A stretch of DNA of 64,000 bases from Deltaproteobacteria bacterium (GTDB lineage Bacteria > Myxococcota_A > Polyangia > Haliangiales > Haliangiaceae). Position 1 is the stretch's first letter. Every line of letters starts with the position of its first letter. Of the stretch, positions 11,779 through 54,442 are shown one piece after another. The notes under the pieces are model-generated. The model did not search any database. It was not told the DNA's origin and saw only the letters and a program-made list of their open reading frames with translations. Made by a program: the position numbers and the translations under genes. The stretch covers positions 9,508-73,507 of the forward strand of contig JBDUAS010000004.1 in NCBI GenBank assembly GCA_040004535.1, given 5' to 3'.

Positions 11779-11822
11779 CGAAATTGGTTCCACTGCGCCG
11801 GATCACCGGCTCTCTTCCAGAG

Positions 11823-16242: not shown

Positions 16243-17715
16243 TCCGCGCGGACTATCGGCGACGAACACCAGGTGTCGCGTCAAGTCGACGTCGAGCCCG
16301 ACCGCCGCTTCGAAGAAGTCACTCGACGTGTAGTCGGCCTGCGGATCCCAGGTGTTGTAGTAGCCGACCTGCTTCGGCTGCGTCGGATCGGAGAGGTCGA
16401 GCACGCGCACGCCGTCCTGGTAGTACGTGAAGTACGCCTTCGTACCGAACGCCATCAGGTTGTGGATCGACACCCACTCGCGCGTCTGCCACGTCGCGAA
16501 CGACTTCATGAATCCGGGCGCCGCCGGATCGACGTCGACGAGATCGAGCTTCGCGCCGTAGTTCTCCTCGCCGTGGAGCGCGATGTGGCGGCCGTCGATC
16601 GTCGTCGTCCAGTTCGAGTGGCTCGTGCGCGTCGGCGTTTTCGGCCACGCACCGCGCTGCTGCGGCGCCGCCGGGTTCGAGTAATCGACGACGACGAACC
16701 CCTGATCCCACGCGTTGAGATACGCGATGCCGTTCTCGATCGATAGATCGTGGACGAGCATGCCGTTGACCGCGAACTGACCGAGCTTGGTCGGATGCTC
16801 GGGATCTGTGATGTCGTAGATCGGGCACGTACCGTCGTACGTGCCGAAATACGCGTAGACCTTGGCCCCGCGCGCTTCGATCGCATCGGTGTGCGCATCT
16901 TCCGGAATCGTCGCGACGAGTGTCGGGTTCGCCGGGTTCGAGACGTCGACGACATCGACGCCGTGATCCGCGATCAGCGCGTAGCGTTTGTTGTTCGCTT
17001 CGACGAGCTTGACGTCGTTCGAATAGCCGAGGTGCGCGCGCCGATACCATCCGATCTGCGTAGGGTTCGTCGGATCGGTCGTGTCGATCATGTGCAATCC
17101 GTCCTGACGGATCAGGTACGCCGTCGTGCCGGCAACCCGCACGTTGAACGTGTACCCCGGACCCCAGTTCGGTCCCGCGAGCTGGCCGATCAGCGTGAAG
17201 CCGTCGCCCTCGCCTTCGACGACGCCCCCGACCGAGTTGTGGGTCGCGCGCACGACCTTCGCCGTGCACACCTCGCACGAGCCGCCGTAGCACTGCGCGC
17301 GATCCATCCGGAGCGTGCCATCGGGCGCGAGGTTCGAGATCCGATGCGCCTCGAGGTACGGCTTACCGTTGTAGGTCTGCTCGTTGCGCTCGAACAGCGA
17401 GTCCGCGGTCAGCGTGCCGATCTTTACGGCGCTGCGATCGAACATGACCGAGCCGTCGGCGTTGTTCTGAAGCATCACGCTCGACACGTCACCGAGCGAT
17501 GCACCGGTCAGAAACCAGCGGCCGGTCGGATCCCAGGTCGCGAGCGTACCGGCCACGAGCGGACCGAACGCGGTCGCGTCGTCGTACGTCTGGGTCTGCG
17601 CGCTCGTCTTGCAGCCCGCGACGACGTCGGGGATCGCGGTCGCGTCGGGCTGCGCGGGCGCCTGCGCCTGATCTCCACAGGCGGCCACCAACGCGACGAC
17701 CCAGACGGCCTTCAT
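16213..17715 (-). CDS. LVIVD-repeat beta-propeller lipoprotein (500 aa)
   Basis: Lipobox VALVAAC. Repeated xxVDxSNP/TDPxxP units are present (HMIDTTDPTNP, VDVVDVSNPANP, IYDITDPEHP, VVVDYSNPAAP, VRVLDLSDPTQP). Confidence 0.75.
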   Translation of the reverse strand: MKAVWVVALVAACGDQAQAPAQPDATAIPDVVAGCKTSAQTQTYDDATAFGPLVAGTLATWDPTGRWFLTGASLGDVSSVMLQNNADGSVMFDRSAVKIGTLTADSLFERNEQTYNGKPYLEAHRISNLAPDGTLRMDRAQCYGGSCEVCTAKVVRATHNSVGGVVEGEGDGFTLIGQLAGPNWGPGYTFNVRVAGTTAYLIRQDGLHMIDTTDPTNPTQIGWYRRAHLGYSNDVKLVEANNKRYALIADHGVDVVDVSNPANPTLVATIPEDAHTDAIEARGAKVYAYFGTYDGTCPIYDITDPEHPTKLGQFAVNGMLVHDLSIENGIAYLNAWDQGFVVVDYSNPAAPQQRGAWPKTPTRTSHSNWTTTIDGRHIALHGEENYGAKLDLVDVDPAAPGFMKSFATWQTREWVSIHNLMAFGTKAYFTYYQDGVRVLDLSDPTQPKQVGYYNTWDPQADYTSSDFFEAAVGLDVDLTRHLVFVADSPRGLLILRDDTP

Positions 17716-17791
17716 GGATCGAGCATCCGGTGCACCTGGGGATGCGGCAACGCCGGCAAGCTCACACGCGATGAGACGGCGAGACGCGTGG

Positions 17792-19840
17792 CTAGCGGGC
17801 GCGTACCACGACCGCGAGCAGGTCCTCGCTCGGGTCGCCGGCGCGCGACGCGAGCTCGACGAGCACCGTCGGCAATCGTCCGCTCACCGGTGCGCTATCG
17901 CGGAGCCGGTCGCGCCAGGCCGCGTCGTCAGAGCCGCGCACGGCGCTCGACACGACGACCAGCACCGAGTCGACCGGCAACTGCGACGTCCCGCGTGTCG
18001 CGGTCGTCAGGCTCGCACCCGGCGGTTGCTCGCCGCCGAGCGCCGTCGCTTTCGGGCGCACGCCACGGAGCGAGCCATCCGCGAGCGCGTGATCGACTGC
18101 CGCGATCGGCCCGACGATGAAACCACCCGCGTGACCCGCACACGCCCACTCGATCGTCATCGTCTTCGCGTCGAGGATCGCGAGGAACGCCGACACCGGC
18201 TCACCGCCGCGCATCACGCCTTCGCTACTCGCGCGCATCGTCGCGACGAGCTCGTCGAGTGTGATCGGAGTCGCGCCGGGTGTCGTCGCAGCCGCGAACG
18301 CACCGGTCAACGCGGCGGTTGCGAGCGCGGCTGCGACGCCATGCGCCTGCGCTTCGGTGACGAGCAATGCGAGGCGGCCGTCTTCGAGCTCGGTCGCCGA
18401 CCAACCCGCGCCTGTCGTGCGTGCGGCGGTTCGATACTCCGCGGCTACCGCCCAGCGACCGAGCTGCGCATCGCGACTCGATGACGCCTGCAGCCGCAAC
18501 GCATCCGCGACCTCGACCTCGCGCTCGGTCTCTCGCTCGCGCGCCGCCTCGTGGGCGAGCTCCACGAACGTGTAAGCCCGCGCCGCCGCCCGCGCCGACT
18601 CGACGACCAGCTCGCGCTCGGCATCGCGCAGCGCCTTCGGGTACTGCGCCTCGACGAGCGCGACGACCTCGTCGTGATCGACGAGCGGCACGATCATCCC
18701 GGCAGGATCATCCTTGAAGAGCGCCTCGAGCGGTGCGCGCATCGCCCCGAGCCGCATCGTCGCGAGCTCGACGACGGCGAACGGCTGCGGATGCTCGACG
18801 AGCCACGCCGCGAGCTCCGGCGTCATGGCGAGCGCATCGCCCCACCGCGTGACGCGCGTATCGATGCCAACGGTGCGCTTCCAGAGCGCCGCGAGCCGCT
18901 CCGCGATCCTCACGCCGTCGTCGGCTTTCGCCATGCGGACGATGAACTGATCGAGCGCGCGTTGTTCCTTGACCTGCTGCGGGCGCGTCCGCTCGATGCC
19001 CCACGCGAGCGCCGCGAGCCCCGCCCACGCGCTGCTGGTCGCAGCCGCGAGCGTGAGTGGAGAATCGACGAAGAACAGCGCGAGCACGATAGCCGCACCG
19101 ATCGCACCGACGAACGTCGCTAGCTCGATCGCCATGGCGCGATCCACGCCCTGCGGCCGCAGGATGTTCGTGCGCGCGATCATGTACAGCGCGACGAGCG
19201 ATGCGGCGAGCGCGGGCAGCCACGCGACCGGATACGAGCCCCATGGCGTGTGATCGGTGTAGAGCAACATCGTATCGATCGACGACACCGCACCGAGCAC
19301 GAGGATGCCGAGCAACAGGCGCACGGTCCGGCGTTGCTCGGCGCGCGGTGTCGAGCGCCGGACGATCAGGATGCCGATCACGAGCCACACGACGAGCTGT
19401 GTGAAGTGGATCGTCGTCAAAGGGCCAGGGCTCAGGTAGTACATGCCCGATGCGAGCATGTGGACGTGCGGCACGACCGTGTCCGTCCCCCACGCGATCG
19501 CGACGAACACCGCGCCGACGATTCCGGAGATCCGCGCGATCCAGCGGAACCGCTCGAGCTGACCGCCGACCGCGAGCAGCAGCAACAACAAGTTCGGCCC
19601 GACGAGGGCGACCGGCCCCTGGCCGAGCTTCAACAGGCGCCGCGCCGCGTCCGGATCGTAGGCCATTGCCGCGAGCCCCTGACACAGCGCCCAGGGCAGC
19701 GCGGTGACGACCGCGCCGATGATCCCGATCCGCATCACTCGATCGCCGCGCGTCAGTGCCGCTGCGACGCCGACCGCCGTGAACGCCGCGGCACACACGA
19801 GGTAAGGCACGCACAGCCAGCTCCAGCGAAGGCCGTCCAC
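17792..19840 (-). CDS. Polytopic membrane sensor with C-terminal PP2C/SpoIIE phosphatase domain (about 682 aa)
   Basis: About 8 TM segments in the N-terminal half. The C-terminal half resembles a SpoIIE domain (RWAVAAEYRTAARTTGAGWSATELEDGRLALLVTEAQAHG ... AFLAILD ... WACAGH). The start is uncertain (GTG 19840 up to 19918). Confidence 0.7.
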   Translation of the reverse strand: MDGLRWSWLCVPYLVCAAAFTAVGVAAALTRGDRVMRIGIIGAVVTALPWALCQGLAAMAYDPDAARRLLKLGQGPVALVGPNLLLLLLAVGGQLERFRWIARISGIVGAVFVAIAWGTDTVVPHVHMLASGMYYLSPGPLTTIHFTQLVVWLVIGILIVRRSTPRAEQRRTVRLLLGILVLGAVSSIDTMLLYTDHTPWGSYPVAWLPALAASLVALYMIARTNILRPQGVDRAMAIELATFVGAIGAAIVLALFFVDSPLTLAAATSSAWAGLAALAWGIERTRPQQVKEQRALDQFIVRMAKADDGVRIAERLAALWKRTVGIDTRVTRWGDALAMTPELAAWLVEHPQPFAVVELATMRLGAMRAPLEALFKDDPAGMIVPLVDHDEVVALVEAQYPKALRDAERELVVESARAAARAYTFVELAHEAARERETEREVEVADALRLQASSSRDAQLGRWAVAAEYRTAARTTGAGWSATELEDGRLALLVTEAQAHGVAAALATAALTGAFAAATTPGATPITLDELVATMRASSEGVMRGGEPVSAFLAILDAKTMTIEWACAGHAGGFIVGPIAAVDHALADGSLRGVRPKATALGGEQPPGASLTTATRGTSQLPVDSVLVVVSSAVRGSDDAAWRDRLRDSAPVSGRLPTVLVELASRAGDPSEDLLAVVVRAR

Positions 19841-42592: not shown

Positions 42593-42718
42593 CGACTATA
42601 TTTACCAGACTTGTTGGGGTTCAAATGATCACGTCAGGCTCATCCCCGCGTCGCGCAACAGGATCTCGCGGGTCATCGTCCCTCGGCCGTGGCGAATTCG
42701 TCCGACTCGCAATTGTCT

Positions 42719-42746
42719 GAACCCTTTGCGCTCGCCCTGGCTCTCA
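42719..42746 (+). promoter_or_regulatory. ECF-type promoter motif copy a (GAACCCT-N16-TCTCA)
   Basis: GAACCCTttgcgctcgccctggcTCTCA, 18 nt upstream of ATG 42764. Confidence 0.6.
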
Positions 42747-42763
42747 TGGCAGAAGGAGCACCG

Positions 42764-42943
42764 ATGTGTCGAGCGATCACGTGTAGCAAGTGCAAACGAC
42801 CGAGCTGGGCCGGCTGCGGCGCCCATGTCGAGCAAGTCCTCGGTCACGTGCCGGCGGCAGAGCGCTGCCAGTGCAAGGCGACCGAGGCGGCGAGCGGTGG
42901 CGGTGGCCTCGGCAAGGCGATCCGCTCGTTGTTCGGACGCTAG
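42764..42943 (+). CDS. Small Cys-rich protein (59 aa)
   Basis: AGGAG lies 5-6 nt before the ATG. MCRAITCSKCKRPSWAGCGAHVEQVLGHVPAAERCQCK contains 7 Cys. Confidence 0.6.
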   Translation: MCRAITCSKCKRPSWAGCGAHVEQVLGHVPAAERCQCKATEAASGGGGLGKAIRSLFGR

Positions 42944-43141
42944 CGATCCTTTCGGGCTCGCGCGATGAAGCCGCGCCACGTTCGTCAACCGCTGCAGCTT
43001 CGCACGCATGCTGGCGAGGATCTCGCGCGGGGCGAACTGCCTGGTTCCGCGCGGACGAGCCGGAAGTGACTTCCCGGCGGCCCGCCTGCGGCTGCGACGC
43101 CACTGACGCGCGGTGACGGAGAAATCGCTAGAGCGTCGCCG

Positions 43142-43429
43142 CTACGGGAGCTGGATCGTCGGCTCTTCGTTCGCGCGATACAGCAGGACGACGTTCCCGA
43201 TCACCTGCGCGACCTCGCTTCGGGTCTGCACGGCGATCTCTTCGGCGGCCGAGTGGCGATCGAGCTCGGCGGTGTCGCCGACCTTGATCTTGATCAGCTC
43301 GTGATCGGCGAGCGCTTGTTCGACTGCCTTGATCAAGCCTTCGTCGAGGCCGCCCTTCCCTACCTGAACGATCGGATTCAGCGCGTGGCCGAGCCCGCGG
43401 AGGTGATGGCGTTGCTTGCCCGTCAACAT
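43142..43429 (-). CDS. yhbY: YhbY-like CRM-domain RNA-binding protein (95 aa)
   Basis: LTGKQRHHLRGLGHALNPIVQVGKGGL ... ELIKIKV ... VQVIGNVVLLYR. The start may alternatively be at 43450. Confidence 0.8.
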   Translation of the reverse strand: MLTGKQRHHLRGLGHALNPIVQVGKGGLDEGLIKAVEQALADHELIKIKVGDTAELDRHSAAEEIAVQTRSEVAQVIGNVVLLYRANEEPTIQLP

Positions 43430-43442
43430 ATTCACGAGCGTA

Positions 43443-45197
43443 CTATTCAAGCAGCAGCGCAGCGTCGCTCGCGATCAAAATCTCGCGGGTCTGGGCTGGC
43501 TCGCGCACATCGGCGTAGATCCAGCCATCGCTGCGGAAGTGCGGGAACAGCGCGTACTGACCCGCGCCCATGTGCGTGATCTGGATCGGCACGCCGGTCC
43601 GCAGGTCCATCAGGTAGAGGTCCGCGCGGTCGCTCGTGTAGTGGTGATAGACGATCCAGCGCTCGTCGTAGGAGAACCCGGGCTTGCCACCGGCGAGGCA
43701 GTAGCGCGCGATCTCTGGCGTCGTGATCGTGTACGTCGCGCCCGCCGGCGTCGCCATCACCTTGTGCAGGACATAGCCGAGCTGGCCGCCCGGACCGGCG
43801 ACGCGCGTGAGCTCGACGCGCGCGGACGGCGAGAGCACCGCGTCACCTTCGAACGGCTGCGCGACGCTGACCGCCTGCTTCTCGACGTAGGTCTGGCCGT
43901 CGAAGATCATCGGCGTGAAGTTTGCGGTCGTGAACGAGTCCGCGCTCACGCCTGGATCCTGCGACGAGAACCAGCCGCCGTTGTCCGAGAAGAACGCACC
44001 GTTGATCGCGAAGTAATCACCACCACCGAGCACCTTGCCGACGTGCTGGTAGAGCCCGACCTCGCCGAGCTTCGTGCAACCGGGCTCGGTCATCGTCAGC
44101 GAATTCGCAGCGCCGGTCAGCGACGTGAGGACTGCCATCGAGCACGAGTTGTTGCCATTGCCCTGGAACATCCAACCCGAGTTATCGGGGAAGAACCCCG
44201 GGTCGTAGGGCGCGGGGACGCCGACCGCGACGCCGCGCTGGAGGTCCTGCACGGTGCCCATCGAACCCGAGCCACCGCCGTGCGCGACGAACCGACCGTC
44301 GGCCGAGCTCCGCGTCCAGTACGACGACTGATACGCCGTGATCGTCTTGAGGAGCCGGATGTGGCTACCGCCGGCATCCCACGTCGCGCTGTCGGCGACA
44401 TCCGCGGCGCGCGGCAGATCCGCGAGGCAGTTCTTCGGGTCGGTCGCGGTGCCGCAGTCGTACATCGCGAGCAGGTTGTCGCGGTTGACCGCGCGCCAAC
44501 CCTGGGTTGCCATCGCGGTGACGTGGGTCGCGACGTCGGCCGAGATGCTCTGGTCGCACGTCGACGGCGGCGGATCCTCGGGCAACGTCTCGTCGAGCAG
44601 CGGCAGGCCGCGCGCGAACCACTCCGCGACGATGTCGAACTGCGGCTGCGTGAACGGTGTCACCGTCGAGCCGTGGGGCATCGCGGCCGTCGTGATGAAC
44701 GTCGAGAGCTCGGTCGTCGCATTCGCGCCGTACGCGACCTTGAACGTGTAGTCGAACCACGGGAGCCGGCCTGCGGACGCATAGATCCCGAGCTTCTGGG
44801 TCACGAACGCCGAATCGCCGTTCGCCGGGTTCAACCGCAGACAATCCAGCATCTGCTTCGCCGACTGCGCCGACTGGACCGTGAGGTCGGTGAGGCAACT
44901 CGCCATCGCCGTGTCGCCAAGGCCACGCCAGTACCGGATGTGCTGCCGGGTCAGCGTGTGACACGAGTTGCACGACGCGGTCTGCGCGCCGCTCACGTTC
45001 GCGCCGATCAACTGGAGCGCCTTCGTCGCGAGTGTCTGGTCGTCGAGCGTGACCGGATTGCGAAACACCGGCGCGAGCGGAGCATCGACCGGTGCGTCGA
45101 TCGCGGCGTCGAGCGCGGCGTCGACCGACGCGTCGGTTTTCGCCTGATGTCCACCGCCACAGCCCGCCACCACGAGAATCAGAAGAAACACGCGCAT
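43443..45197 (-). CDS. Lipoprotein with CxxCH motif and C-terminal TolB-like propeller (584 aa)
   Basis: Lipobox LVVAGC. Single haem-c-type motif SCNSCH. The C-terminal ERWIVYHHYTSDRADLYLMDLRTGVPIQIT is TolB/PD40-like. Confidence 0.65.
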   Translation of the reverse strand: MRVFLLILVVAGCGGGHQAKTDASVDAALDAAIDAPVDAPLAPVFRNPVTLDDQTLATKALQLIGANVSGAQTASCNSCHTLTRQHIRYWRGLGDTAMASCLTDLTVQSAQSAKQMLDCLRLNPANGDSAFVTQKLGIYASAGRLPWFDYTFKVAYGANATTELSTFITTAAMPHGSTVTPFTQPQFDIVAEWFARGLPLLDETLPEDPPPSTCDQSISADVATHVTAMATQGWRAVNRDNLLAMYDCGTATDPKNCLADLPRAADVADSATWDAGGSHIRLLKTITAYQSSYWTRSSADGRFVAHGGGSGSMGTVQDLQRGVAVGVPAPYDPGFFPDNSGWMFQGNGNNSCSMAVLTSLTGAANSLTMTEPGCTKLGEVGLYQHVGKVLGGGDYFAINGAFFSDNGGWFSSQDPGVSADSFTTANFTPMIFDGQTYVEKQAVSVAQPFEGDAVLSPSARVELTRVAGPGGQLGYVLHKVMATPAGATYTITTPEIARYCLAGGKPGFSYDERWIVYHHYTSDRADLYLMDLRTGVPIQITHMGAGQYALFPHFRSDGWIYADVREPAQTREILIASDAALLLE

Positions 45198-45262
45198 TAG
45201 GGCGGAAACTAGCACCGAATCCCGGAAGTCAAGCCGGCAAGTTCGGGCCTGGGCGAGTGGGC

Positions 45263-45290
45263 GAACCCTTTGCGCGCTGCCTGGCTCTCA
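45263..45290 (+). promoter_or_regulatory. ECF-type promoter motif copy b
   Basis: GAACCCTttgcgcgctgcctggcTCTCA. Only 6 nt separate it from ATG 45297, so the transcript is predicted to be leaderless. Confidence 0.6.
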
Positions 45291-45296
45291 CGTTGT

Positions 45297-45689
45297 ATGC
45301 CCCCAACGATCCCAGGTATCCGCAGAGAGCTCGCGCTCGGCTACGACGAGGCCCTGGCGCGCGTACCCGAGGTGCTAGCGACCGAGGGCTTCGGTGTGCT
45401 CACCGAGATCGATGTCACGGCGACCCTCGCGAAGAAGCTCGGCGTCGCGTTCCGGCGCTACAAGATCCTCGGCGCGTGCAACCCCACCCTCGCCCACAAG
45501 GCGCTCGGCATCGCGCTCGAGATCGGCGTCATGCTCCCGTGCAACCTCATCGTCTACGAGCGCGATGGTGGCGGTGCGACCGTCGTCGCGATCGATCCAG
45601 CCGAGACGATGGCCTCGCGCGATCCGCAACTCGCCGAGCTGGCAGCGGAGGTCCGCCAGCGGCTCGTGCGCGTGATCGAGCGCATCTGA
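45297..45689 (+). CDS. DUF302 domain protein (130 aa)
   Basis: EGFGVLTEIDVTATLKKLG-type core, then YKILGACNP ... MLPCNLIVYE. Confidence 0.75.
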   Translation: MPPTIPGIRRELALGYDEALARVPEVLATEGFGVLTEIDVTATLAKKLGVAFRRYKILGACNPTLAHKALGIALEIGVMLPCNLIVYERDGGGATVVAIDPAETMASRDPQLAELAAEVRQRLVRVIERI

Positions 45690-45702
45690 GCGATGGGCGG
45701 AT

Positions 45703-46494
45703 TCACATCGCGATGGCAGCCACGATCGCGTCGCGGACGGCTGCACGCACCGCGGCCGGCACGACATCACCGGGTAACCGGCGACACAGCGACACCGTGC
45801 GTTTGAGCGCATCACACGCACCGGCGCACCGTGCACATGTCGCGAGGTGGTTCTCGATCTGCACGCAGGTCGCTTGATCGATCTCGGCGCCGGCGTACGC
45901 GGTGAGCTCCTGGGCCAGCTCCGGGCACGGCTCCGCATCTGCGTTCGCACCCAGCGTGCCGGCGAGCTCGGTGCGCAACGCCATGCGCGCGCGATGCAGG
46001 CGGCTCTTGAGCGCGCCGACCTCGATGCCGATCACGTCGGCCGCTTGCTCGGCGCTGAGCCCCTCGACGTCACGCAGGACGAGGACCTCCCGTTGCTCTG
46101 CCGGCAGCGCCGCGATCACGCGCGACAGCGCCTCACCGATCTCGCGAGCGTGCATGCGTGCGTCCGGCTGGGGCGTCGGATCCACGAGCTCGGGTGCGCC
46201 GGCGTCGTCGAGCGAGCGAGTCGGATGCTGCCCGCGACGCTCCTTGATACAGAAGCTGCGCGCGATCTGGTAGAGCCACGTCGACAGCGCAGCATCGCCG
46301 CGGAACCCCGGGAGGTGGCGGAACGCGGCGAGCAGGGTCTCTTGGAGCACTTCGCGCGCGGATTCCTCGTCGCCGCACATCCGTAGGCCGAATCGATAGA
46401 TCTGCGGCTCGTAACGCTCCAGCAGCTCGTCGAGCGCCTCGCGATTCCCCGCGCGGGCGGCGGCGATCAGTTCGGCGTCGGGTTGGTCGGCCAT
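45703..46494 (-). CDS. ECF sigma factor fused to a C-terminal ZAS-type (zinc anti-sigma) Cys-rich domain (263 aa)
   Basis: Sigma region 2 (ELLERYEPQIYRFGLRMCGDEESAREVLQETLLAAF) and region 4 (LRDVEGLSAEQAADVIGIEVGALKSRLHRAR). The tail is EPCPELAQELTAYAGAEIDQATCVQIENHLATCARCAGACDALKRTVSLC, which matches C-x25-H-x3-C-x2-C. Confidence 0.85.
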   Translation of the reverse strand: MADQPDAELIAAARAGNREALDELLERYEPQIYRFGLRMCGDEESAREVLQETLLAAFRHLPGFRGDAALSTWLYQIARSFCIKERRGQHPTRSLDDAGAPELVDPTPQPDARMHAREIGEALSRVIAALPAEQREVLVLRDVEGLSAEQAADVIGIEVGALKSRLHRARMALRTELAGTLGANADAEPCPELAQELTAYAGAEIDQATCVQIENHLATCARCAGACDALKRTVSLCRRLPGDVVPAAVRAAVRDAIVAAIAM

Positions 46495-46501
46495 GCCCCC
46501 A

Positions 46502-46530
46502 CAACCTTTGCGAGATCGCTCGGTCTGTCA
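46502..46530 (+). promoter_or_regulatory. ECF-type promoter motif copy c1 (degenerate)
   Basis: CAACCTTtgcgagatcgctcggtcTGTCA, in tandem with copy c2. Confidence 0.4.
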
Positions 46531-46538
46531 ACCTGCCT

Positions 46539-46566
46539 GAATCGTTTCGGTGCGCCTCGGCTCTCA
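46539..46566 (+). promoter_or_regulatory. ECF-type promoter motif copy c2
   Basis: GAATCGTttcggtgcgcctcggcTCTCA, 18 nt upstream of the thioredoxin ATG 46585. Confidence 0.55.
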
Positions 46567-46584
46567 CGGCGACATGAGGCACCG

Positions 46585-46926
46585 ATGTCCGTCGCGCTGA
46601 CGCAGAAGACGTTCGATCGCACGATCGCGACTGGCATCGTGGTCATCGACTGGTGGGCCGCCTGGTGCGGCCCGTGCCGCGCGTTTGCGCCGGTGTTCGA
46701 GGCCGCGAGTCAGCGCCATCCAACCGTCACGTTCGGCAAGGTCGACACCGACGGAGAGACCCAGCTCGCGGCCCGGTTCGAGATCTCCGCGATCCCGACG
46801 CTGATGGTGTTCCGCGATGGCGTCCTGGTGTTCCGCCGTGCCGGCGCGATCGGGGTCGACGGCCTCGACGTCTTGATCGATCACGTCAAGGCCCTCCCCT
46901 CGTCGGAGGTGCGCGGTGCGCGCTGA
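46585..46926 (+). CDS. Thioredoxin (113 aa)
   Basis: Active site WAAWCGPC. Also contains IPTLMVFRDG. Confidence 0.9.
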   Translation: MSVALTQKTFDRTIATGIVVIDWWAAWCGPCRAFAPVFEAASQRHPTVTFGKVDTDGETQLAARFEISAIPTLMVFRDGVLVFRRAGAIGVDGLDVLIDHVKALPSSEVRGAR

Positions 46927-47792
46927 GGCCGCGTGGATCCTCGCCGTCGCGGGGCTGGCGCTCGCGGGATGCGGCCGCAAGGAGCCGCGCGAGGCGGCCG
47001 TCGCCGGCACAGCGATCCGTGTCGCGGCCACGACCGCGCACGACGAGCCACTCGCGGAGCTGTACCTCGCGAGCGGCACGGTGCGCGGGCGCACGACGAT
47101 CACGTTGACGAGCAAGACCTCTGGATACGTCCGCGACGTCCGGGTGCGCGCCGGCGATCGGGTGCGCGCCGGGCAGGTGCTCGTCGAGCTCGAGGCCAAC
47201 GACGTCCGCGCCGGCATCTCGCGAGGGCGCGCCGAGCTGGATCACGCGACGGAGGCACGCGCCGAGGCCGCGAGCGCTGTCGATGCCGCGCGGATCACGG
47301 CCGAGCTCGCGAAGACCACGCGCGATCTACATCCTCAACGTCGCGTGGTTCCAGTCGTTCAAGACCCCGCTCGTGATCATGTCCGCGATCCCGTTCTCGT
47401 TGATCGGGATCCTGCCCGCGCACGGGGCGATGAACGCGTTCTTCACCGCGACGTCCATGATCGGCTTCATCGCGGGCGCCGGGATCGTGGTGCGTAACTC
47501 GATCATCCTCGTCGACTTTATCGAGCAGCGCCTCGCCGAGGGCGTGCCGCTGGAACAGGCCGTGGTCGATGCGGGCGCGATCCGGTTCCGGCCGATGGTC
47601 CTGACCGCCGCCGCGGTCGTGGTCGGCGCCTTCATCATCCTGTTCGACCCGATCTTCCAGGGCCTCGCGATCTCGCTGATGGCGGGCGAAGTGGCGTCGC
47701 TGCTGCTGTCGCGGATGACCGTGCCGGTGGTGTACTTCCTGATGAAGCGCCGGGAGCTGCGCCGGGCCCGCCACCTCGGGCCGCTGGGCTGA
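46916..47792 (+). pseudogene. Deletion remnant: N-terminus of an RND adaptor (MFP) lipoprotein joined out of frame to the C-terminal about 150 aa of an RND permease
   Basis: The first frame gives lipobox LALAGC plus a barrel-sandwich start ([24 protein letters not shown]) up to about 47325. A second frame gives [28 protein letters not shown] ... [11 protein letters not shown] ... [15 protein letters not shown] (RND TM10-12) through to the stop at 47792. Confidence 0.65.
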
Positions 47793-47881
47793 ATCCTGTC
47801 CGAACCCTCGCGCGACCCGAAGCTCGCCGCCTCGTACGCGTGATCGAACGGCTCCGACCTGGAAGATCTGTCCCGAGCCGT

Positions 47882-47910
47882 GAACCCTTTCGGGGTCGAG
47901 CTGGCTCTCG
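47882..47910 (+). promoter_or_regulatory. ECF-type promoter motif copy d
   Basis: GAACCCTttcggggtcgagctggcTCTCG (17-nt spacer), 6 nt before GTG 47917. Confidence 0.5.
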
Positions 47911-47916
47911 AAGCAC

Positions 47917-48135
47917 GTGCAAAGGCCTACTCTCACGATCGATGGATTGGTCCTCGCATTCGCCGGCGCGATGGTGCTTCTCGGCACGGTGCTCGCGGTG
48001 ACCGTGAGCTCGAAGTTCCTTTTCCTGACCGGGTTCGTCGGAGCGAACCTGCTCCAGTCTTCGTTCACCGGCTTTTGCCCGCTCGCGAAGATCCTGAAGC
48101 GTGCAGGCTGCCGGTGCGGGACTGCCTTCGAGTGA
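47917..48135 (+). CDS. DUF2892 (YgaP-like) small membrane protein (72 aa)
   Basis: Two TM helices and the terminal FTGFCPLAKIL motif. Confidence 0.7.
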   Translation: MQRPTLTIDGLVLAFAGAMVLLGTVLAVTVSSKFLFLTGFVGANLLQSSFTGFCPLAKILKRAGCRCGTAFE

Positions 48136-48761
48136 GTACGCGATCCAGCCTGTGGGCCGATCGCGTCCTGCCGCACCTCATCGAGAAGGCGTGCCGCAGC
48201 ACGGCGATCCTCGAGGAGCGCAAGCGGTGGGTGCCGCGAGCGTACGGCGACGTGCTCGAGCTCGGCGTGGGGTCGGGGCTCAACCTCGCGTTCTACGACG
48301 CCTCCTCGGTGGCGAAGGTGACCGGAATCGATCGCTCGGCCCCGCTCCTCGCGCGTGCGGCGCGGCGCGCCACGACCGCGCCGGTGGCAGTCGAGCTCGT
48401 CCGCGGCCATGCCGAACACTTGCCGTTTCCCGATCGAACGTTCGACTCGGCTGTGATCACGTATTCGTTATGTAGCGTCGACGATCCTGGAGGCGCGCTG
48501 GCCGAGCTGCGTCGCGTGCTGCGCCCCGGCGGCGAGCTCGTGTTCGTCGAGCACGGGCTCGCGCGCGACGCCGCGACTCGGCGGTGGCAGCACTGGCTCA
48601 CGCCCGTGTGGCGGCGGATCGGAGGAGGATGCCACCTCGACCGCGACATCCCAGCGATCCTGCGCGATGCCGGATTTCTCTCCGATGACCTGCACGCGGA
48701 CTACGCCGACGGTGCGAGGTGGCTGAGCTTCACGTTCGAAGGCACCGCGCGCGTGGCGTGA
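48132..48761 (+). CDS. Class I SAM-dependent methyltransferase (209 aa)
   Basis: GTGA overlap with the upstream gene. Motif I VLELGVGSGLN, and post-I/II LRPGGELVFVEH. Confidence 0.8.
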   Translation: MSTRSSLWADRVLPHLIEKACRSTAILEERKRWVPRAYGDVLELGVGSGLNLAFYDASSVAKVTGIDRSAPLLARAARRATTAPVAVELVRGHAEHLPFPDRTFDSAVITYSLCSVDDPGGALAELRRVLRPGGELVFVEHGLARDAATRRWQHWLTPVWRRIGGGCHLDRDIPAILRDAGFLSDDLHADYADGARWLSFTFEGTARVA

Positions 48762-48786
48762 CACGCGCGTCCAGCTTGGAGGTCCA

Positions 48787-49386
48787 ATGACCAGCTTCTG
48801 GGATCAGAGATATGGCAGCGACGAGTACGCCTACGGCACCGAGCCCAACGATTTTCTGCGCGCCGAGGCTCACCAAATCCCGCCCGGACCCGTGCTGTGT
48901 CTGGCCGAAGGTGAAGGGCGCAACGCAGTGTTCCTCGCGCAGCGCGGTTATCAGGTGACCGCCGTCGACCTAGCGATCGAAGGATTGCACAAGGCCGAGC
49001 GGCTCGCGCGACGCCATGGCGTCACGCTCGAGCTCGTGCAGGCGGACCTCGCGACCTTCGATCTCGGACTCGATCGCTGGAGTGGGATCGTCGAGATTTT
49101 CGCGCACGTCTTGCCGGCCGTACGCACACGGGTGCACGCGCAGATCGCGCAAGCCTTGCGCGTCGGTGGTTGCCTCGTGCTCGAGACGTACCGGCCCGAG
49201 CAGCTAGCCCTCGCTACGGGGGGCCCGAAGGAGCTCGCTCTGCTCAGCACGCTCTCCGAATTGCGTGCGCAGCTGAGCCCGCTCGAGCTCGTCATCGCAC
49301 GCGAGGCCAACCGCGAGATCCACGAGGGCCGCTTTCATGATGGCCCGAGTGCCACGGTCCAGCTCGTCGGTCTGCGGCGGGTGTGA
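48787..49386 (+). CDS. Class I SAM-dependent methyltransferase, TehB-like (199 aa)
   Basis: GGAGG ribosome-binding site. FWDQRYGSDEYAYG, VLCLAEGEGRNAVFLAQRG, LRVGGCLVLE. Confidence 0.8.
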   Translation: MTSFWDQRYGSDEYAYGTEPNDFLRAEAHQIPPGPVLCLAEGEGRNAVFLAQRGYQVTAVDLAIEGLHKAERLARRHGVTLELVQADLATFDLGLDRWSGIVEIFAHVLPAVRTRVHAQIAQALRVGGCLVLETYRPEQLALATGGPKELALLSTLSELRAQLSPLELVIAREANREIHEGRFHDGPSATVQLVGLRRV

Positions 49387-49392
49387 TCGCGC

Positions 49393-49420
49393 GAACCCTC
49401 CACGCGCCGTTTGGCTCTGA
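49393..49420 (+). promoter_or_regulatory. ECF-type promoter motif copy e
   Basis: GAACCCTccacgcgccgtttggcTCTGA, followed by AGGAG and ATG 49440. Confidence 0.6.
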
Positions 49421-49439
49421 TCTCGCAAGGAGCTACACC

Positions 49440-49646
49440 ATGCTGACCAACGAATCATCCTTCGACCGTGGACTGCGCGTGCTCGTCGGAATCATCTTGC
49501 TCTCGCTCGTCTTCATCGGACCGAAGACATTGTGGGGTCTGATCGGGCTCGTGCCACTCGCGACCGGCCTCGTCGGGTTCTGCCCGCTGTACCGGGTGCT
49601 CGGCATCACGACCTGCCCTGCCCGTCCACGTAACCAGGCAGCTTGA
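49440..49646 (+). CDS. DUF2892 (YgaP-like) small membrane protein (68 aa)
   Basis: FDRGLRVLVGIILL ... LVGFCPLYRVLG. Confidence 0.7.
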   Translation: MLTNESSFDRGLRVLVGIILLSLVFIGPKTLWGLIGLVPLATGLVGFCPLYRVLGITTCPARPRNQAA

Positions 49647-49647
49647 G

Positions 49648-50073
49648 ATGGCGAAGCCCGCACCGTTTCCCCATACGTACTCGGTCAAGCTGCAGGATCG
49701 CCGTCTCACCGCGCCGCCACGGGCCGCGATCTCCATCGGCGCGCCGCCTCAGTTCGGCGGCAGCAACGAGGTGTGGAGCCCGGAGGACCTGCTGGTAGGC
49801 GCCGTCCTCCAGTGTCTGTGGACCACATTCGAGGCGTACGCGCGCCACGAGGAGCTCGAGGGCGTCAGCTGGCAGGGCACCGGCACCGGGATCCTGGACA
49901 AGGGTCCGACCGGCCCGGTGTTCACGTCGATCACGCTCGCGATCCAGCTCGTCGTCGCGGCCGCCGATGTCGAGCGAGCGCAGCGCATCCTCGCGACCGC
50001 GGAGAAGCACTGCATCATCTCGAACGCGCTCCGGGTCGCGGTCACGGTCGAAGCCGACGTACGCGCGCGCTAG
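49648..50073 (+). CDS. OsmC/Ohr-family peroxiredoxin-like protein (141 aa)
   Basis: SPEDLLVGAVLQCLWTTF ... AEKHCIISNAL, which contains the two conserved Cys contexts. Confidence 0.85.
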   Translation: MAKPAPFPHTYSVKLQDRRLTAPPRAAISIGAPPQFGGSNEVWSPEDLLVGAVLQCLWTTFEAYARHEELEGVSWQGTGTGILDKGPTGPVFTSITLAIQLVVAAADVERAQRILATAEKHCIISNALRVAVTVEADVRAR

Positions 50074-50153: not shown

Positions 50154-53100
50154 CTACTCGAGCGTCGTCGGCTGGGAGCGCTTCGCGAGCGCCATGAAGA
50201 TCACCGGCACGAGGAACAGCGACAGCAGCGTCGACGACGTCAACCCGCCGACGACGGCGAGCGCGAGCGGCCGGTTCGCATCGGCGCCGGGGTCGAGCCC
50301 GACGGCGGTCGGGATGAGGCCGATCACCGTGGCGAGCGTGGTCATCGCGATCGGGACGAACCGGACGCGTGCCGCATCGAGGATCGCCGCGCGCTTGTCG
50401 AGCCCTTCGTCGAGCTTGATCCGCGCGTGATCGATCAGCAAGATGCCGTTCGACACGGCGATGCCGACGACCATCAACACGCCCATCAGCGCGGTGATCG
50501 AGAAGCCCATCCCGCCGGCGAGCAACGCGAGCACGATGCCGATCAACGTGCACGGGATCGTGAACAGCATGACGAGCGGCATGCGCAGCGACTTGAACTG
50601 CGACGCCATGATCATGAACACGACCATGACCGCGAGGCCGATGCCGAGCCCGAGCCCCGAGAATGTCGTCCGCATCAGCTCGATCTGACCGACGAACTCG
50701 AACTTGATGTTCGCGGTGCGTGGATCACTCTTCAGCTTCGCCTCGAGCTCGGCCGCGGCAGTGCCGAGGTCGCGACCCTCGGTCTGCATCATGACGTGCG
50801 ACGCGCGCTGGAGGTGATCGCGCTCGATCGCGATCGGCCCGGTCGAGCGCCGGATCACGCCGTACGAGCCGAGCGTCACCGCCGCACCGTTCGCGGCGAT
50901 CCGCAGCGGGATGGTGCGCAACGCGGCCGTGTCGTTGATCCGCTTGTCGTCGTATTCGGTGACCAGGTAGTACGCTTCGCCATTGCCGCCGTCGACCCAC
51001 ACCGAGGGCGTGTTGATGTTGCCGACCGTCGCATCGAGCGTCGCCTGCGCCGCCCCGCGCGCACTCACGCCGACGGTGCCGACCCGCTCGCGATCCGTAT
51101 CGATGTGAACCTCGGGATAGTCGGACTCGAACGTCTGCCAGACATCGCGAACGCCGCCGACCGTCCTCGCGACCTCCGCGACCGCGCGCGATTCGGATTC
51201 GAGTGCTTCGAGCGAATCGGCGCGGACCTCGACGACGAGCGGCGCGTTGAAGCCGTTCGAGAACACGCTCGCGACGAGGCCGCCCGGCCATTGCAGGAAG
51301 TCGACGCCGGGGAAATCGTGGACGAGGATCGCGCGGGCCTGGTCCGCGATGTCCTGCTGCGAGTCCGAGCGGGTCTCGGGGTCGGTCAAGCCGAGCCGGA
51401 TGAACCCCATGTGCGGTCCCCAGTTCGGCGAGCTCATCGCGCTGCGAGCCGCCTTGGGCGAACCGGTGTTCGTGAGCACCAGATCGACGCCCGGCAACTT
51501 CTTCTTCAGGTCGTCGCCCATCGCCTGCATCTTGCGCGACGACTCCTGGATCGAGGTCCCCGGCGCGAGGCGCACGTAGATCCGCTCCATCGACTCGTCG
51601 ATCTGCGGGAAGAACACGCTCGGCAGGTGCGTCGCGATCCAGCCGCTCGCGACCACGAGGATCAGCGAGCCCGCGACGATCGCCCAGCCGGTATCGAGCA
51701 CCCGGTCGAGGACGCGCGCATACCCGTTCGCCATCCCGGTGATCCGGTGCTCGAGCTTCTGGGCGACGGGACCCGGTGTGGTGTCGCGGAGGAGGTAGCG
51801 GCACGCGACCGGCGTCAGCATCACGCTGACGAAGAACGATGCGGCCATCGCCACCGCGACCGTGATCGCGAGTGGCACGAACAGCTTCTGGGCGAGGCCC
51901 GCGAACAACAACACCGGCAACAGCACGGCCATGGTGGTCAGCGTCGATGCGAGGACCGGCAGCACGACGACCTTGGTTCCGATATAGGCAGCTTGTGCGG
52001 CGGATAACCCTTCCCTGCGGTGACGGTGGATCGACTCGAGTACGACGACCGCGTTGTCGACGAGCCGGCCCATGACGAGTGTGAGCCCACCGAGCGTGAA
52101 CACGTTGAGGGTCTGGCCGGTCGCGTTGAGGACGATCAACGTGATCGCGAACGACAGCGGGATCGCGAACGACACGATCAGCGTTCCGCGCAGCGACTGG
52201 AGGAACACCAGGATGACGAGCGCGACGAGGACGAGCGCCTGGAGGATCTCCTTCTTGAGGCCCGCGTAAGAGCTCCGCACGAACGTCGATTGATCGAAGA
52301 TCGGCTTCACGACCATGCCCGGCGGCAAGTTCGGGATGTTCGCGATCGTGGCCTTGACCGCGTCGACGATGTCGATCGTGTTGCCGCCGGGGATGCGCAA
52401 CACGTTGAGGTAAACCCCGTCCGCGCCGTTGATCGACACCGCCTGGGTCTGGGGCGACGCTCCGTCGACGACGGTCGCGACATCCTTGACCCGCACCGGC
52501 TTGCCGTTCGGGCGTTTCACGATCGCGTCGCCGATATCGGCGATCCGCTCGGCGACGGAGTTCGTGTAGAGGTTCGCGTCGAACCGCTTCGTGATCAGCT
52601 CGCCGGAGGGCAACAGCGGGCTCGCGTTCGCGACGGTGTGCGCGATGTCCTGACTGGTCACTCCACGCGCCTGAGCCTTGGTCGGATCGACGACGACGTT
52701 GATCCGGCGCGTGCGACCGCCGTTGACCGACGCGCTCGCGACGCCGGAGATGCCCTCGAGGCTCGGCTCGATGTTGTTCTGCGCGTAGTCGTAGAGCTGC
52801 GCGCCGGAGAGCCCGCCACCGTAGACCGCGACCTGGACGACCGGTGCGTTCGACGGGTCGTACTGCAAGACGAACGGCGGGAGCACGCCCAGCGACTTCG
52901 GCACGGCCGCCATCGCGAACGCGACCTGCTGCTGGACCAGCGTCTGTGCCGCGTCGAGGTTCGTGCCCCACTTCATCCACACGAACACGACCGACAGGTT
53001 GTTGCGCGACGTGCTCTCGACGTGGTCGACGCCGGGCGTCGCACTCACGTATTTCTCGATCCGCCAGGTCAACGTCTTCTCGACGTCCTTCGGACCGAGA

Positions 53101-53252
53101 CCGGGCGCGAGCGTGCCGATCACCAGCACCGGCGGCGTGAGGTCCGGAAACGTATCGACGGCCATACGCGGCGTGACGACCGCTGCGAAGACCATCACGG
53201 CGATGCACGCCATCGCGATCGCGATCGGGTTCTTGAGGGAGGTCTCGATCAC
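50154..53252 (-). CDS. RND efflux transporter permease (1032 aa)
   Basis: 12-TM AcrB-like architecture. The GTG start overlaps the MFP stop (GTGA). Confidence 0.9.
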   Translation of the reverse strand: MIETSLKNPIAIAMACIAVMVFAAVVTPRMAVDTFPDLTPPVLVIGTLAPGLGPKDVEKTLTWRIEKYVSATPGVDHVESTSRNNLSVVFVWMKWGTNLDAAQTLVQQQVAFAMAAVPKSLGVLPPFVLQYDPSNAPVVQVAVYGGGLSGAQLYDYAQNNIEPSLEGISGVASASVNGGRTRRINVVVDPTKAQARGVTSQDIAHTVANASPLLPSGELITKRFDANLYTNSVAERIADIGDAIVKRPNGKPVRVKDVATVVDGASPQTQAVSINGADGVYLNVLRIPGGNTIDIVDAVKATIANIPNLPPGMVVKPIFDQSTFVRSSYAGLKKEILQALVLVALVILVFLQSLRGTLIVSFAIPLSFAITLIVLNATGQTLNVFTLGGLTLVMGRLVDNAVVVLESIHRHRREGLSAAQAAYIGTKVVVLPVLASTLTTMAVLLPVLLFAGLAQKLFVPLAITVAVAMAASFFVSVMLTPVACRYLLRDTTPGPVAQKLEHRITGMANGYARVLDRVLDTGWAIVAGSLILVVASGWIATHLPSVFFPQIDESMERIYVRLAPGTSIQESSRKMQAMGDDLKKKLPGVDLVLTNTGSPKAARSAMSSPNWGPHMGFIRLGLTDPETRSDSQQDIADQARAILVHDFPGVDFLQWPGGLVASVFSNGFNAPLVVEVRADSLEALESESRAVAEVARTVGGVRDVWQTFESDYPEVHIDTDRERVGTVGVSARGAAQATLDATVGNINTPSVWVDGGNGEAYYLVTEYDDKRINDTAALRTIPLRIAANGAAVTLGSYGVIRRSTGPIAIERDHLQRASHVMMQTEGRDLGTAAAELEAKLKSDPRTANIKFEFVGQIELMRTTFSGLGLGIGLAVMVVFMIMASQFKSLRMPLVMLFTIPCTLIGIVLALLAGGMGFSITALMGVLMVVGIAVSNGILLIDHARIKLDEGLDKRAAILDAARVRFVPIAMTTLATVIGLIPTAVGLDPGADANRPLALAVVGGLTSSTLLSLFLVPVIFMALAKRSQPTTLE

Positions 53253-54442
53253 GGCGCGGCCTTCGGCTTCTCCGCATCGGGCTTCGCGGCCTCGGGAACC
53301 CACGGCTCTTCCTTGCCGGTGACCTTGTCGCCATCGTCGAGGAGCCCGCGACCTTCGGTCACCAGCAGCGCGCCCGCAGGTAGCGACGGCTCGACGTAGT
53401 AGACGCCCTGACGCTCGCCGATCAACTTCGCGCGCGTCGAGTGCGCGACGCCGTCCTTGACCACGAACACCTGCGTCTTCGAGCCGTGAACCGTCGCCGC
53501 GATCATCGGGATCGCCGTCGCCGGTAGTGGTGCGCCGGCATCGAGCGACAGCTCCGCGGTGGTGTGGGTTGGAATCTCGCGCTGCGGATCGTCGACATCG
53601 AGCTCGATGTGCACGGTGCGCGTGTCGAGATCCGCCGACGGCGCGCGCCGCGAGATCTTGGCCGTGAGCTCCTTGCCGGTCGCGAGCAGGTGGACGCGCA
53701 CCTCGGTGTCGGGGGCGACGTGGGCGAAATCGTCTTCGGGAACATCGGCGGTGACGCGCACGACATGGCGATCGACGATCGTGACGATCGAGGTCCCGGG
53801 GCGCGCGAACATGCCGGGGTCACCCATGCGCTCGGCGACGTCGCCGTCGAACGGCGCGCGCAACACGCAGTCGTTGACCTGCAGCGACGAGTTCTGGAGC
53901 TGGGCCTGCAACGCGGACAGCTGGGCGGTCTTGCTCGCCGCGTCCGCCTTCTTCATATCGACCTCGTTCTGGGAGACGTACTTGCCGTCGAGCAGGCTCG
54001 CGACGCGCCCGGCCTCGGCCGCCGACGCCGTTCGCATCGCGTCGAGGGCCCGTGCCTGCGCCGCGATCGCGCTGTTCTGCGCCGACGAGCTCCGGCAATC
54101 GAGCGTCGCGATCACCTCGCCGCGCTTGACCACCGCGCCGGGACGCACGAGCACGGTGTCGACGTACGCCGACACCATCTGCGGCCCGATCTTCGCCTCG
54201 ACCCACGGCTCGATCGTGCCGACGTAGCGCCGCCGCTCCTGGAACGGTTGCGCGAGCGCCTTCACCATCGTCACGTTCTTGGGCACGTCGGCGAGTGCGC
54301 TGTGGTTCGTGCCGGCGGTGGCCCTTCGATAGAGCAGACCGCCGATCAGGAGCACCACGACGACGGAGACGGTAAGGAACAGGATCACGCGGCCGCGGTT
54401 GGGGCGGCCGGCGGTCGTGGAAGGTTCGAGTGGTTCGATCAT
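53249..54442 (-). CDS. RND efflux periplasmic adaptor (MFP) (397 aa)
   Basis: N-terminal TM segment, a lipoyl/barrel-sandwich segment (GAVVKRGEVIATLD), a coiled-coil hairpin, and VLRAPFDGDV. ATGA overlap with the TolC-like gene. Confidence 0.85.
   Translation of the reverse strand: MIEPLEPSTTAGRPNRGRVILFLTVSVVVVLLIGGLLYRRATAGTNHSALADVPKNVTMVKALAQPFQERRRYVGTIEPWVEAKIGPQMVSAYVDTVLVRPGAVVKRGEVIATLDCRSSSAQNSAIAAQARALDAMRTASAAEAGRVASLLDGKYVSQNEVDMKKADAASKTAQLSALQAQLQNSSLQVNDCVLRAPFDGDVAERMGDPGMFARPGTSIVTIVDRHVVRVTADVPEDDFAHVAPDTEVRVHLLATGKELTAKISRRAPSADLDTRTVHIELDVDDPQREIPTHTTAELSLDAGAPLPATAIPMIAATVHGSKTQVFVVKDGVAHSTRAKLIGERQGVYYVEPSLPAGALLVTEGRGLLDDGDKVTGKEEPWVPEAAKPDAEKPKAAP

Follow-up and report, generated by a model that had tools for sequence, protein, structure and literature searches.

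Introduction

Extracytoplasmic function (ECF) sigma factors controlled by zinc-binding anti-sigma (ZAS) proteins are the textbook case of cytoplasmic thiol-stress sensing. The closest described systems, sigma-R/RsrA of Streptomyces coelicolor (ECF12) and SigH/RshA, consist of two proteins, and such two-protein versions are, to our knowledge, the only ones that have been studied. Sigma-R itself reads promoters of the form GGAAT-N18-GTT. Here we report on a 64,000-nucleotide stretch of DNA from a bacterium of the Haliangiaceae (GenBank assembly GCA_040004535.1, contig JBDUAS010000004.1, positions 9,508 to 73,507), hereafter called the window, in which a gene for an ECF sigma factor carrying a ZAS domain in the same polypeptide lies among small transcription units led by copies of one promoter-like element. 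An earlier note on this DNA, made from its letters, had listed six such copies and assigned them to the fused sigma factor. The new content is a promoter motif, a regulon and a probably leaderless organisation for a fused, predicted soluble sigma-ZAS protein of the ECF270 type, and we propose that the system would work like sigma-R/RsrA with both proteins joined.

Fused and one-component ECF sigma factors have been catalogued in several groups. Group ECF270 comprises proteins from Deltaproteobacteria, Nitrospirae, Ignavibacteriae and Planctomycetes, with a Cys pair in sigma-2 and a soluble ZAS protein encoded at position +1, which is fused to the sigma factor in 60% of subgroup 2; in its description, "Promoter motifs are not conserved" and the genomic context is conserved for the ZAS only (Casas-Pastor et al. 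2021, supplement, bioRxiv copy). A 2022 review places ECF270 among the groups without experimental data (PMC8999054). Proteins of ECF48, ECF52 and ECF53 (e.g. SCO4117) also carry an anti-sigma-like zinc finger fused C-terminally to the ECF core, in addition to transmembrane (TM) helices and large domains outside the cytoplasm, and proteolysis has been proposed to activate them (PMC8999054). In Myxococcus xanthus, CorE and CorE2 (ECF44 and ECF238) are one-component ECF sigma factors with no separate anti-sigma factor, which depend for activity on a short Cys-rich domain at the C-terminus (about 20 aa in ECF238), paired with a CxC in the linker.

Results and Discussion

Five copies of one ECF-type promoter element

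All six strings quoted in the earlier note were found where it had placed them, and five of them, called a, b, c2, d and e, are real copies on the plus strand (Table 1); the sixth, c1, is treated separately below. The element is longer than the version first described and reads (C/T)GAA(C/T)C(C/G)TT(T/C)-N10/11-(T/C)GGCTCT(C/G)A, or in compact form YGAAYCNTTY-N10/11-YGGCTCTSA. Its core GAAYCNT-N16-TCTSR occurs four times in the window where 0.20 would be expected, a count that 100 dinucleotide shuffles never reached; copy d, whose spacer of 17 nt is one base longer than that of the others, was found by a separate search. The five sites alone were used to make a position weight matrix (PWM), which was scored on both strands of the 64 kb and gave 26.6 to 35.2 bits for these sites, the runner-up on either strand reaching 18-19 bits. 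This runner-up (7757-7788, minus strand) lies in the middle of an open reading frame (ORF) of 1048 aa and was taken as a chance match. A later PWM was built from 33 cross-genome sites, 25 of which share one spacing and seven of which have one extra base, the spacer being variable in sequence.

The five copies all stand directly 5' of gene starts and on the strand of the gene, as the earlier note had said of its six. Measured from the final base of the -10 element, the distance to the start codon falls into two classes, a short one in b and d and a longer one in a, c2 and e, whose leaders each contain a GGAG-type Shine-Dalgarno sequence. The same division is seen in the 29 sites of the window and 18 orthologous loci for which a downstream ORF was called, 15 of them ending -1 to 8 nt and 10 ending 15-20 nt before the start codon. 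Because ECF-dependent transcription begins about 6 nt past the -10 element, the class of short distances would give leaderless mRNAs and the longer class short leaders, and units b and d are probably transcribed as leaderless mRNAs.

The likeness to ECF/RpoE-type promoters that had been proposed agrees with the 33-site consensus; ECF-type promoters have an AAC-core -35, a conserved (G/C)TC -10 and a spacer of about 16-17 nt. Promoters of RpoE and AlgU (ECF02) have a -35 of GAAC(T/C) and a -10 of (G/C)TCT(C/G)A about 16 nt apart, whereas the -10 is here extended to GGCTCT and the response would be to cytoplasmic and not to envelope stress. No RseA/MucA-type membrane anti-sigma factor, RseB or RseP context was found (for RseA and RseB, in the window and five annotated loci), and the gene 3' of the sigma gene is a convergent DUF302 gene. 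An operator for a repressor or activator, or a dispersed repeat, would also account for a motif that recurs in front of genes, which is the one point in favour of such a reading. The element is, however, asymmetric, bipartite and non-palindromic, its spacer is of fixed length (the same in 25 of 33 sites) and variable sequence, it occurs in a single orientation that always faces the gene, its end lies 6 or about 18 nt ahead of the start codon, and the sigma factor is the only transcription factor conserved in the loci. Such a geometry fits a promoter rather than an operator or repeat, either of which we hold to be very improbable. The five copies are real and, judged by their sequence, represent one alternative-sigma-factor promoter.

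An ECF sigma factor fused to a ZAS domain

The product of the sigma gene is an ECF (group 4) sigma-70 factor in which Pfam recognizes Sigma70_r2 (residues 24-89), Sigma70_r4_2 (121-173) and Sigma70_ECF, and TIGR02937 scores above its cut-off. Its C-terminal 75 residues contain a zf-HC2 domain (24.8 bits against a Pfam cut-off of 22.2) with the ZAS ligand pattern C190-x25-H216-x3-C220-x2-C223. Pfam gave no domain beyond these sigma regions and zf-HC2. Eight Cys and H216 are invariant in 52 sequences, including C190, C220, C223 and the sigma-2 pair C40/C82; those beyond the zinc ligands are C40, C82, C210, C227 and C237. In the PDB the ZAS domain matches RslA and RsrA best, in both cases weakly (E 0.2-0.75). 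C190, H216, C220 and C223 align with C11, H37, C41 and C44 of RsrA (PDB 5FRF, a Cys-substituted construct), and C210 presumably stands opposite C31, a by-eye match to the wild-type RsrA sequence, so that within the RsrA pattern C11/C31/H37/C41/C44 the C31 part depends on this match. By analogy with RsrA, the domain would bind zinc and sequester sigma-2 and sigma-4. Among solved sigma factors the closest is AlgU of P. aeruginosa (PDB 6IN7), which has RSRIFRAR in the region-4.2 helix where the present protein has KSRLHRAR, and an AlgU-like helix at this position fits the GAAC -35 element.

Homologues of the sigma factor number in the thousands, and the best 120 of them are 70-100% identical, share the same architecture of 256-280 aa and come, where the source is named, from Kofleriaceae or Myxococcota. 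The sigma ORF of Latescibacterota, Nitrospirota and Gemmatimonadota reaches no further than about 185-200 aa and the tblastn homology runs on to about residue 244, for which reason the ZAS is read there as a separate downstream gene; on that reading the myxobacterial protein would be a gene fusion of a sigma factor with its own anti-sigma factor. The fused ZAS, the C40/C82 pair in sigma-2 and, in distant relatives, the short sigma ORF with a probable separate ZAS gene all fit the description of ECF270, to which the protein, matched on that group description, likely belongs. Unlike what is described for the group, it comes with a clade-wide promoter motif and a regulon. It also differs from the fused proteins of ECF48, ECF52 and ECF53 in being short and in having no long C-terminal extension.

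Motif and fused sigma factor recur together

The loci compared were 13 myxobacterial orthologous ones returned by genome scanning and five further ones with annotated genes (loci are numbered with the prefix L). Motif and fused sigma factor recur together in many soil myxobacterial genomes. With the window-only PWM the motif was found in L001-L004, L006, L010 and five further annotated loci, and every strong match in the five annotated loci lies directly 5' of a gene and in the correct orientation. The genes led by the motif there encode thioredoxin; a DUF2892 protein followed by OsmC; a DUF302 protein; either of two methyltransferases; a DUF6132 protein; a small Cys-rich protein followed by DUF302 and cytochrome bd; a class-II glutamine amidotransferase (GATase_4); an intact pump made of a membrane fusion protein (MFP) and a resistance-nodulation-division (RND) transporter; and a metallo-beta-lactamase (MBL)-fold enzyme followed by a PF03601 (YeiH-like) permease. 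Every locus has its own order and orientation of genes, each gene retaining its own copy of the motif. The pooled loci (293 kb) contain 35 matches of at least 18 bits, and Markov-matched random sequence gave 0-3 (mean about 0.8), a null that is optimistic in that the PWM had been refined on the counted sites; the first discovery in the other loci was made with the window-only PWM.

An independent metagenome scan used the motif alone, as GAACCCTTT-N11-12-GGCTCTCA, with no protein conditioning. It gave 127 matches in 120 contigs, of which 29 are low-GC. Directly 5' of homologues of the known set lie 48 of the 127 matches: thioredoxin (17, the commonest gene behind the motif), small Cys-rich proteins (10), DUF2892 (8), MFP or RND (4), the MBL enzyme (3), DUF302 (2), DUF6132 (2), OsmC (1) and the amidotransferase (1). 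Clustering of the other genes added a second OsmC type (9), an FmdB zinc ribbon (3), a membrane-anchored rhodanese (3), a TauE sulfite exporter (2) and a protein of 147 aa with no Pfam match that looks receiver-like by eye (6). Of the approximately 98 matches that fall in high-GC contigs, about 70 are covered by known and extra families. A single-ORF sigma-ZAS homologue of 38-73% identity lies on more than 25 of the motif-selected contigs, and a sigma homologue is present on 18 of the 42 high-GC contigs of at least 4 kb. Since the fused sigma factor was recovered by a scan for the motif alone, its link with the motif holds without conditioning on the sigma factor. As to the receiver-like protein of about 147 aa, it begins 0-9 nt behind an exact motif in L105, L113, L132, L142, L162 and L173 and could be either an overlooked member of the regulon or a secondary regulator.

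These data bear on which sigma factor reads the motif. The earlier assignment to the adjacent ZAS-fused factor draws its support from comparative genomics, in that the fused sigma factor recurs beside the motif across shuffled loci. The earlier note took this factor as the only one inside the island; the window does contain a second ECF-type sigma factor (Table 1), which shares about 30% identity with the fused factor across residues 1-179. Myxobacteria carry many ECF sigma factors and the fused sigma gene has no motif of its own, whereas most ECF sigma factors autoregulate, so the motif could be read by another sigma factor, for example this second one, the fused protein being a mere neighbour. 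No strong motif copy was found near the second sigma gene. Against such a neighbour role, the fused factor is the one regulator that recurs beside motif-bearing genes across the scrambled loci, it recurs in the motif-only metagenome matches down to about 40% sigma identity, its AlgU-like sigma-4 helix matches the GAAC -35, and autoregulation is not expected of a self-inhibited one-component sigma factor. Recognition by another sigma factor is in our opinion quite unlikely. On the evidence of sequence, we consider it likely that RNA polymerase with the ECF sigma factor of 45703-46494 uses the five sites as promoters, the sigma factor acting as a cis-inhibited thiol-stress switch.

Besides the optimistic null of the pooled scan and the presence of the second ECF sigma factor, three observations call for caution over this reading. 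First, the orthologues in L005, L007, L008 and L011-L013, from Myxococcaceae-type metagenome-assembled genomes, have neither the motif nor regulon genes nearby; a search for the motif in the Myxococcaceae-type orthologues (55-60% identity; L005, L007-L009, L011-L013) gave no match of at least 11 bits, and of these loci L009 alone has regulon genes nearby, an MFP-RND pair and a DUF2892 gene beside the sigma gene. The compact island is limited to the Kofleriaceae-like clade; outside it, the promoter may have diverged. Second, residues E39, E40, L45 and E46 around the HCC motif, which are determinants of redox sensitivity in actinobacterial RsrA (Jung et al. 2011, PMC3177212), are replaced by A218, T219, A224 and G225 (...NHLATCARCAG...). 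Because they are not conserved, oxidant sensitivity is not predicted by the RsrA residue rule, which was dropped as a predictor. Third, the AlphaFold model (pLDDT 78.9) is good for each domain and, with a pTM of 0.36, silent on docking of the ZAS domain in cis.

The sigma gene is not autoregulated

The string c1 (46502), which had been counted as a sixth site, was rejected: it has no invariant G of GAA, has GGTCTG in place of GGCTCT, and scores 5.3 bits with the 33-site PWM, a background value. Read on the minus strand, the same DNA gives TTGACA (46531-46526)-N17-AAGGTT (46508-46503)-N8-ATG (46494), and is probably the sigma gene's own housekeeping-type promoter, as judged from consensus matches. 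Both hexamers and their spacing are kept in L084, in which spacer and discriminator bases vary, and in other close orthologues TAGACT or TACAGT stands 9-10 nt ahead of the sigma ATG. AAGGTT is a poor -10 hexamer, and when the island was scanned for sigma-70 and terminator consensus sequences, no match rose above the level of shuffles and the minus-strand c1 promoter was not called. Its transcript would possibly also be leaderless.

No motif was found on the gene's own strand within 300 nt 5' of 19 sigma genes, the top score being 7.1 bits. Autoregulation, typical of ECF circuits, was rejected since the motif precedes none of the 19 orthologues. The lack of it may explain why upstream-based promoter prediction failed for ECF270.

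Genes behind the five promoters

The genes served by the five sites (Table 1) had been described as a coherent thiol/redox set, and both their Pfam and NCBIfam identities and the recurrence of the same families behind the motif in relatives bear this out. Thioredoxin is led by c2, which is conserved 5' of trx in L084, L002 and L003. The DUF302 protein behind b matches PDB 1J3M (TT1751), itself of unknown function. The DUF2892-OsmC pair of operon e is also found behind the motif in L082, L083, L084 and L085. The 59-aa protein behind a belongs to a family of 193 homologues, all labelled hypothetical, mostly from Kofleriaceae with a few attributed to Ilumatobacter (Actinobacteria). Its signature is MCR-x3-C-x2-C-x2-P-x-WAGCGAHVEQVLGHVP-x4-RC-x-C, in which C2, C7, C10, C18, H21 and C35 are invariant and C37 is present in 11 of 12 aligned sequences, and it is probably a metal-binding or redox-active miniprotein.

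Table 1. Coordinates of the promoters, genes and remnants discussed in the text (positions in the window).
Feature	Position	Strand	Description
Second ECF-type sigma factor	11814-12356	+	
Promoter a	42718..42747	+	-35 GAACCCTTT 42719-42727; -10 GGCTCTCA 42739-42746; 35.2 bits
Promoter a leader		+	17 nt with GGAG, then ATG 42764
59-aa Cys-rich protein	42764..42943	+	behind site a; no Pfam or NCBIfam match
YhbY/CRM RNA-binding-domain gene	43142-43450	-	between a and b
590-aa protein, CNSCH haem-c motif	43443-45215	-	between a and b; apparently a lipoprotein by eye; no Pfam/NCBIfam family
Promoter b	45262..45291	+	-35 45263-45271; -10 45283-45290; 32.7 bits; ATG 6 nt on
DUF302 protein, 130 aa	45297..45689	+	behind b; Pfam PF03625, E=2e-23
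ECF sigma factor with fused ZAS domain	45703..46494	-	Pfam Sigma70_r2, Sigma70_r4_2, zf-HC2
c1, candidate sigma-70-type promoter of the sigma gene	46503..46531	-	consensus matches only
Promoter c2	46538..46567	+	-35 GAATCGTTT 46539-46547; -10 GGCTCTCA 46559-46566; 29.0 bits
Promoter c2 leader		+	18 nt with GAGG, then ATG 46585
Thioredoxin, WCGPC active site, 113 aa	46585..46926	+	behind c2; Pfam PF00085, TIGR01068
MFP-RND remnant	46916..47792	+	3' of trx; Pfam and tblastn
Promoter d	47881..47911	+	-35 47882-47890; -10 GGCTCTCG 47903-47910; 31.6 bits; GTG 6 nt on
DUF2892/YgaP-like TM protein	47917-48135	+	operon d (47917..49386); Pfam, NCBIfam
Methyltransf_11	48132-48761	+	operon d; Pfam, NCBIfam
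Methyltransf_25, Slr1183/TehB-like	48787-49386	+	operon d; PDB 2KW5 (Slr1183), E=1e-59
Promoter e	49392..49421	+	-35 GAACCCTCC 49393-49401; -10 GGCTCTGA 49413-49420; 26.6 bits
Promoter e leader		+	19 nt with AGGAG, then ATG 49440
Second DUF2892/YgaP-like TM protein	49440-49646	+	operon e (49440..50073); Pfam, NCBIfam
OsmC-family protein	49648-50073	+	operon e; Pfam, NCBIfam

Nature of the stress and proposed mechanism

Thioredoxin and OsmC point to oxidative or disulfide stress, and metalloid or soft-metal stress would be compatible with the TehB-like and ArsM-like methyltransferases and with the CusB/CzcB-like pump; we would commit ourselves to thiol-reactive stress only. In the mechanism that we favour, the sigma gene would be constitutively transcribed from its own housekeeping-type promoter and, as it has this promoter and no motif, its control would be post-translational. 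The reduced, zinc-loaded ZAS domain would hold sigma-2 and sigma-4 in cis until oxidation, persulfidation or alkylation of Cys residues, or displacement of the zinc, frees the sigma core. The holoenzyme formed with the freed sigma factor would fire the GAAYCNTTY/GGCTCTSA promoters of the five small units from the predicted starts, and the induced thioredoxin would re-reduce the sensor in a negative feedback loop. Inhibition in cis, the feedback and the inducing signal are all modelled here on sigma-R/RsrA.

The likeness to sigma-R/RsrA and SigH/RshA comprises an ECF sigma factor with a predicted soluble ZAS of the form C-x25-H-x3-C-x2-C, thioredoxin as the flagship target and a regulon for cytoplasmic thiol stress, and it allows for the feedback loop. 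Unlike in sigma-R/RsrA, the anti-sigma domain is part of the same polypeptide, the sigma gene is not autoregulated, the RsrA residues E39, E40, L45 and E46 are not conserved, the promoter is GAAYCNTTY/GGCTCTSA, and the regulon includes DUF2892, DUF302, small Cys-rich proteins and methyltransferases, to which relatives add persulfide-oxidation genes.

The same ECF promoter might instead serve an activating sensor of metals or metalloids of the CorE/CorE2 type, with a regulon that detoxifies soft metals and chalcogen oxyanions (Cd, Cu, tellurite, selenite, arsenite) and does not deal with thiol oxidation. The MFP of the regulon pump has weak CusB/CzcB-type matches, TehB-like and ArsM-like methyltransferases suit metalloid handling and the small six- to seven-Cys protein suits metal handling; moreover, the invariant sigma-2 Cys pair and the Cys-rich C-terminus recall the CxC and Cys-rich domain of CorE (PMC6851896, PMC8999054), and the redox determinants of RsrA are absent (compare PMC3177212). 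In contrast to the short extension of CorE, the C-terminus is here a full zf-HC2 anti-sigma domain of 75 aa with the ligand spacing of RsrA, seemingly homologous to the free-standing +1 anti-sigma gene of distant relatives, which suggests an inhibitory ancestry. The linker that joins sigma-2 to sigma-4 (residues 88-115) has no Cys and no CxC, and the commonest targets, thioredoxin and OsmC, together with the persulfide dioxygenase, rhodanese and TauE added by relatives, have thiol or sulfur functions. Membership in the CorE groups was rejected on the missing linker CxC and the full ZAS domain, and an activating metal sensor seems to us unlikely.

A narrower version of the thiol-stress switch concerns sulfur itself. 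The set of the relatives adds persulfide dioxygenase, rhodanese, TauE and a YeiH-like permease, DUF2892 is named by Pfam after YgaP, and persulfide-detoxification modules under CstR, SqrR or BigR elsewhere resemble this set. In L081, the MBL enzyme encoded behind the motif matches the human persulfide dioxygenase ETHE1 (3e-35) as well as PDB 4YSK (about 1e-86) and 4EFZ (about 3e-84), both labelled only as MBL family, which we take to be the type II persulfide dioxygenases of Sattler 2015. The fused protein might be a dedicated sensor of reactive sulfur species (persulfide or polysulfide) rather than a generic sensor of disulfide stress. Persulfidation or polysulfide bridging of C40/C82, C210, C227, C237 and the ligands would in that case free the sigma core, and the mostly leaderless regulon would join persulfide dioxygenase, rhodanese, TauE, DUF2892 and DUF302 with thioredoxin and thiol/chalcogen methyltransferases. 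We find such a dedication rather doubtful; were it true, this would be the first sigma/anti-sigma system sensing sulfane sulfur, and it would give a functional context to DUF302, DUF2892 and the small Cys-rich family.

Under the broader thiol-stress switch, DUF302, DUF2892/YgaP-like and DUF6132 proteins and the 59-aa protein with six to seven Cys are placed together with thioredoxin, OsmC and persulfide-oxidation enzymes. A compact, orthogonal, redox-responsive sigma factor in one protein, with a defined promoter, could also serve as a part for synthetic biology.

Other features of the locus

As a correction to the earlier description, the island is interrupted between sites a and b by two unrelated genes on the minus strand (Table 1). 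The "decayed MFP/RND pair" of that description is correct and is explained by a single internal deletion of about 3.5 kb near 47325: in tblastn against the intact pair of L084, 46949-47326 corresponds to MFP residues 18-143 of 386 and 47325-47789 to RND residues 921-1075 of 1075. The pair is intact behind the motif in L084, L085 and other contigs, and the deletion could be true decay or an assembly artefact. Just past the island, at 50154-54283, the minus strand encodes an intact RND pump of 1049 aa together with its MFP; identity to the regulon pump is only about 26-30%, and no motif of at least 18 bits was found near it.

Beside the regulon of L081, a separate ECF sigma gene with a gene for a zf-HC2 anti-sigma factor is followed by genes for MbnB/TglH (DUF692), HvfC_N and DoxX/MauE proteins (14942-17914), an arrangement which resembles the reported context of ECF285. 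For ECF285, a DUF2892 protein has been proposed as a new type of anti-sigma factor (ECF classification supplement, Casas-Pastor et al. 2021), and this proposal raises the question of whether the DUF2892 targets described here feed back on sigma activity.

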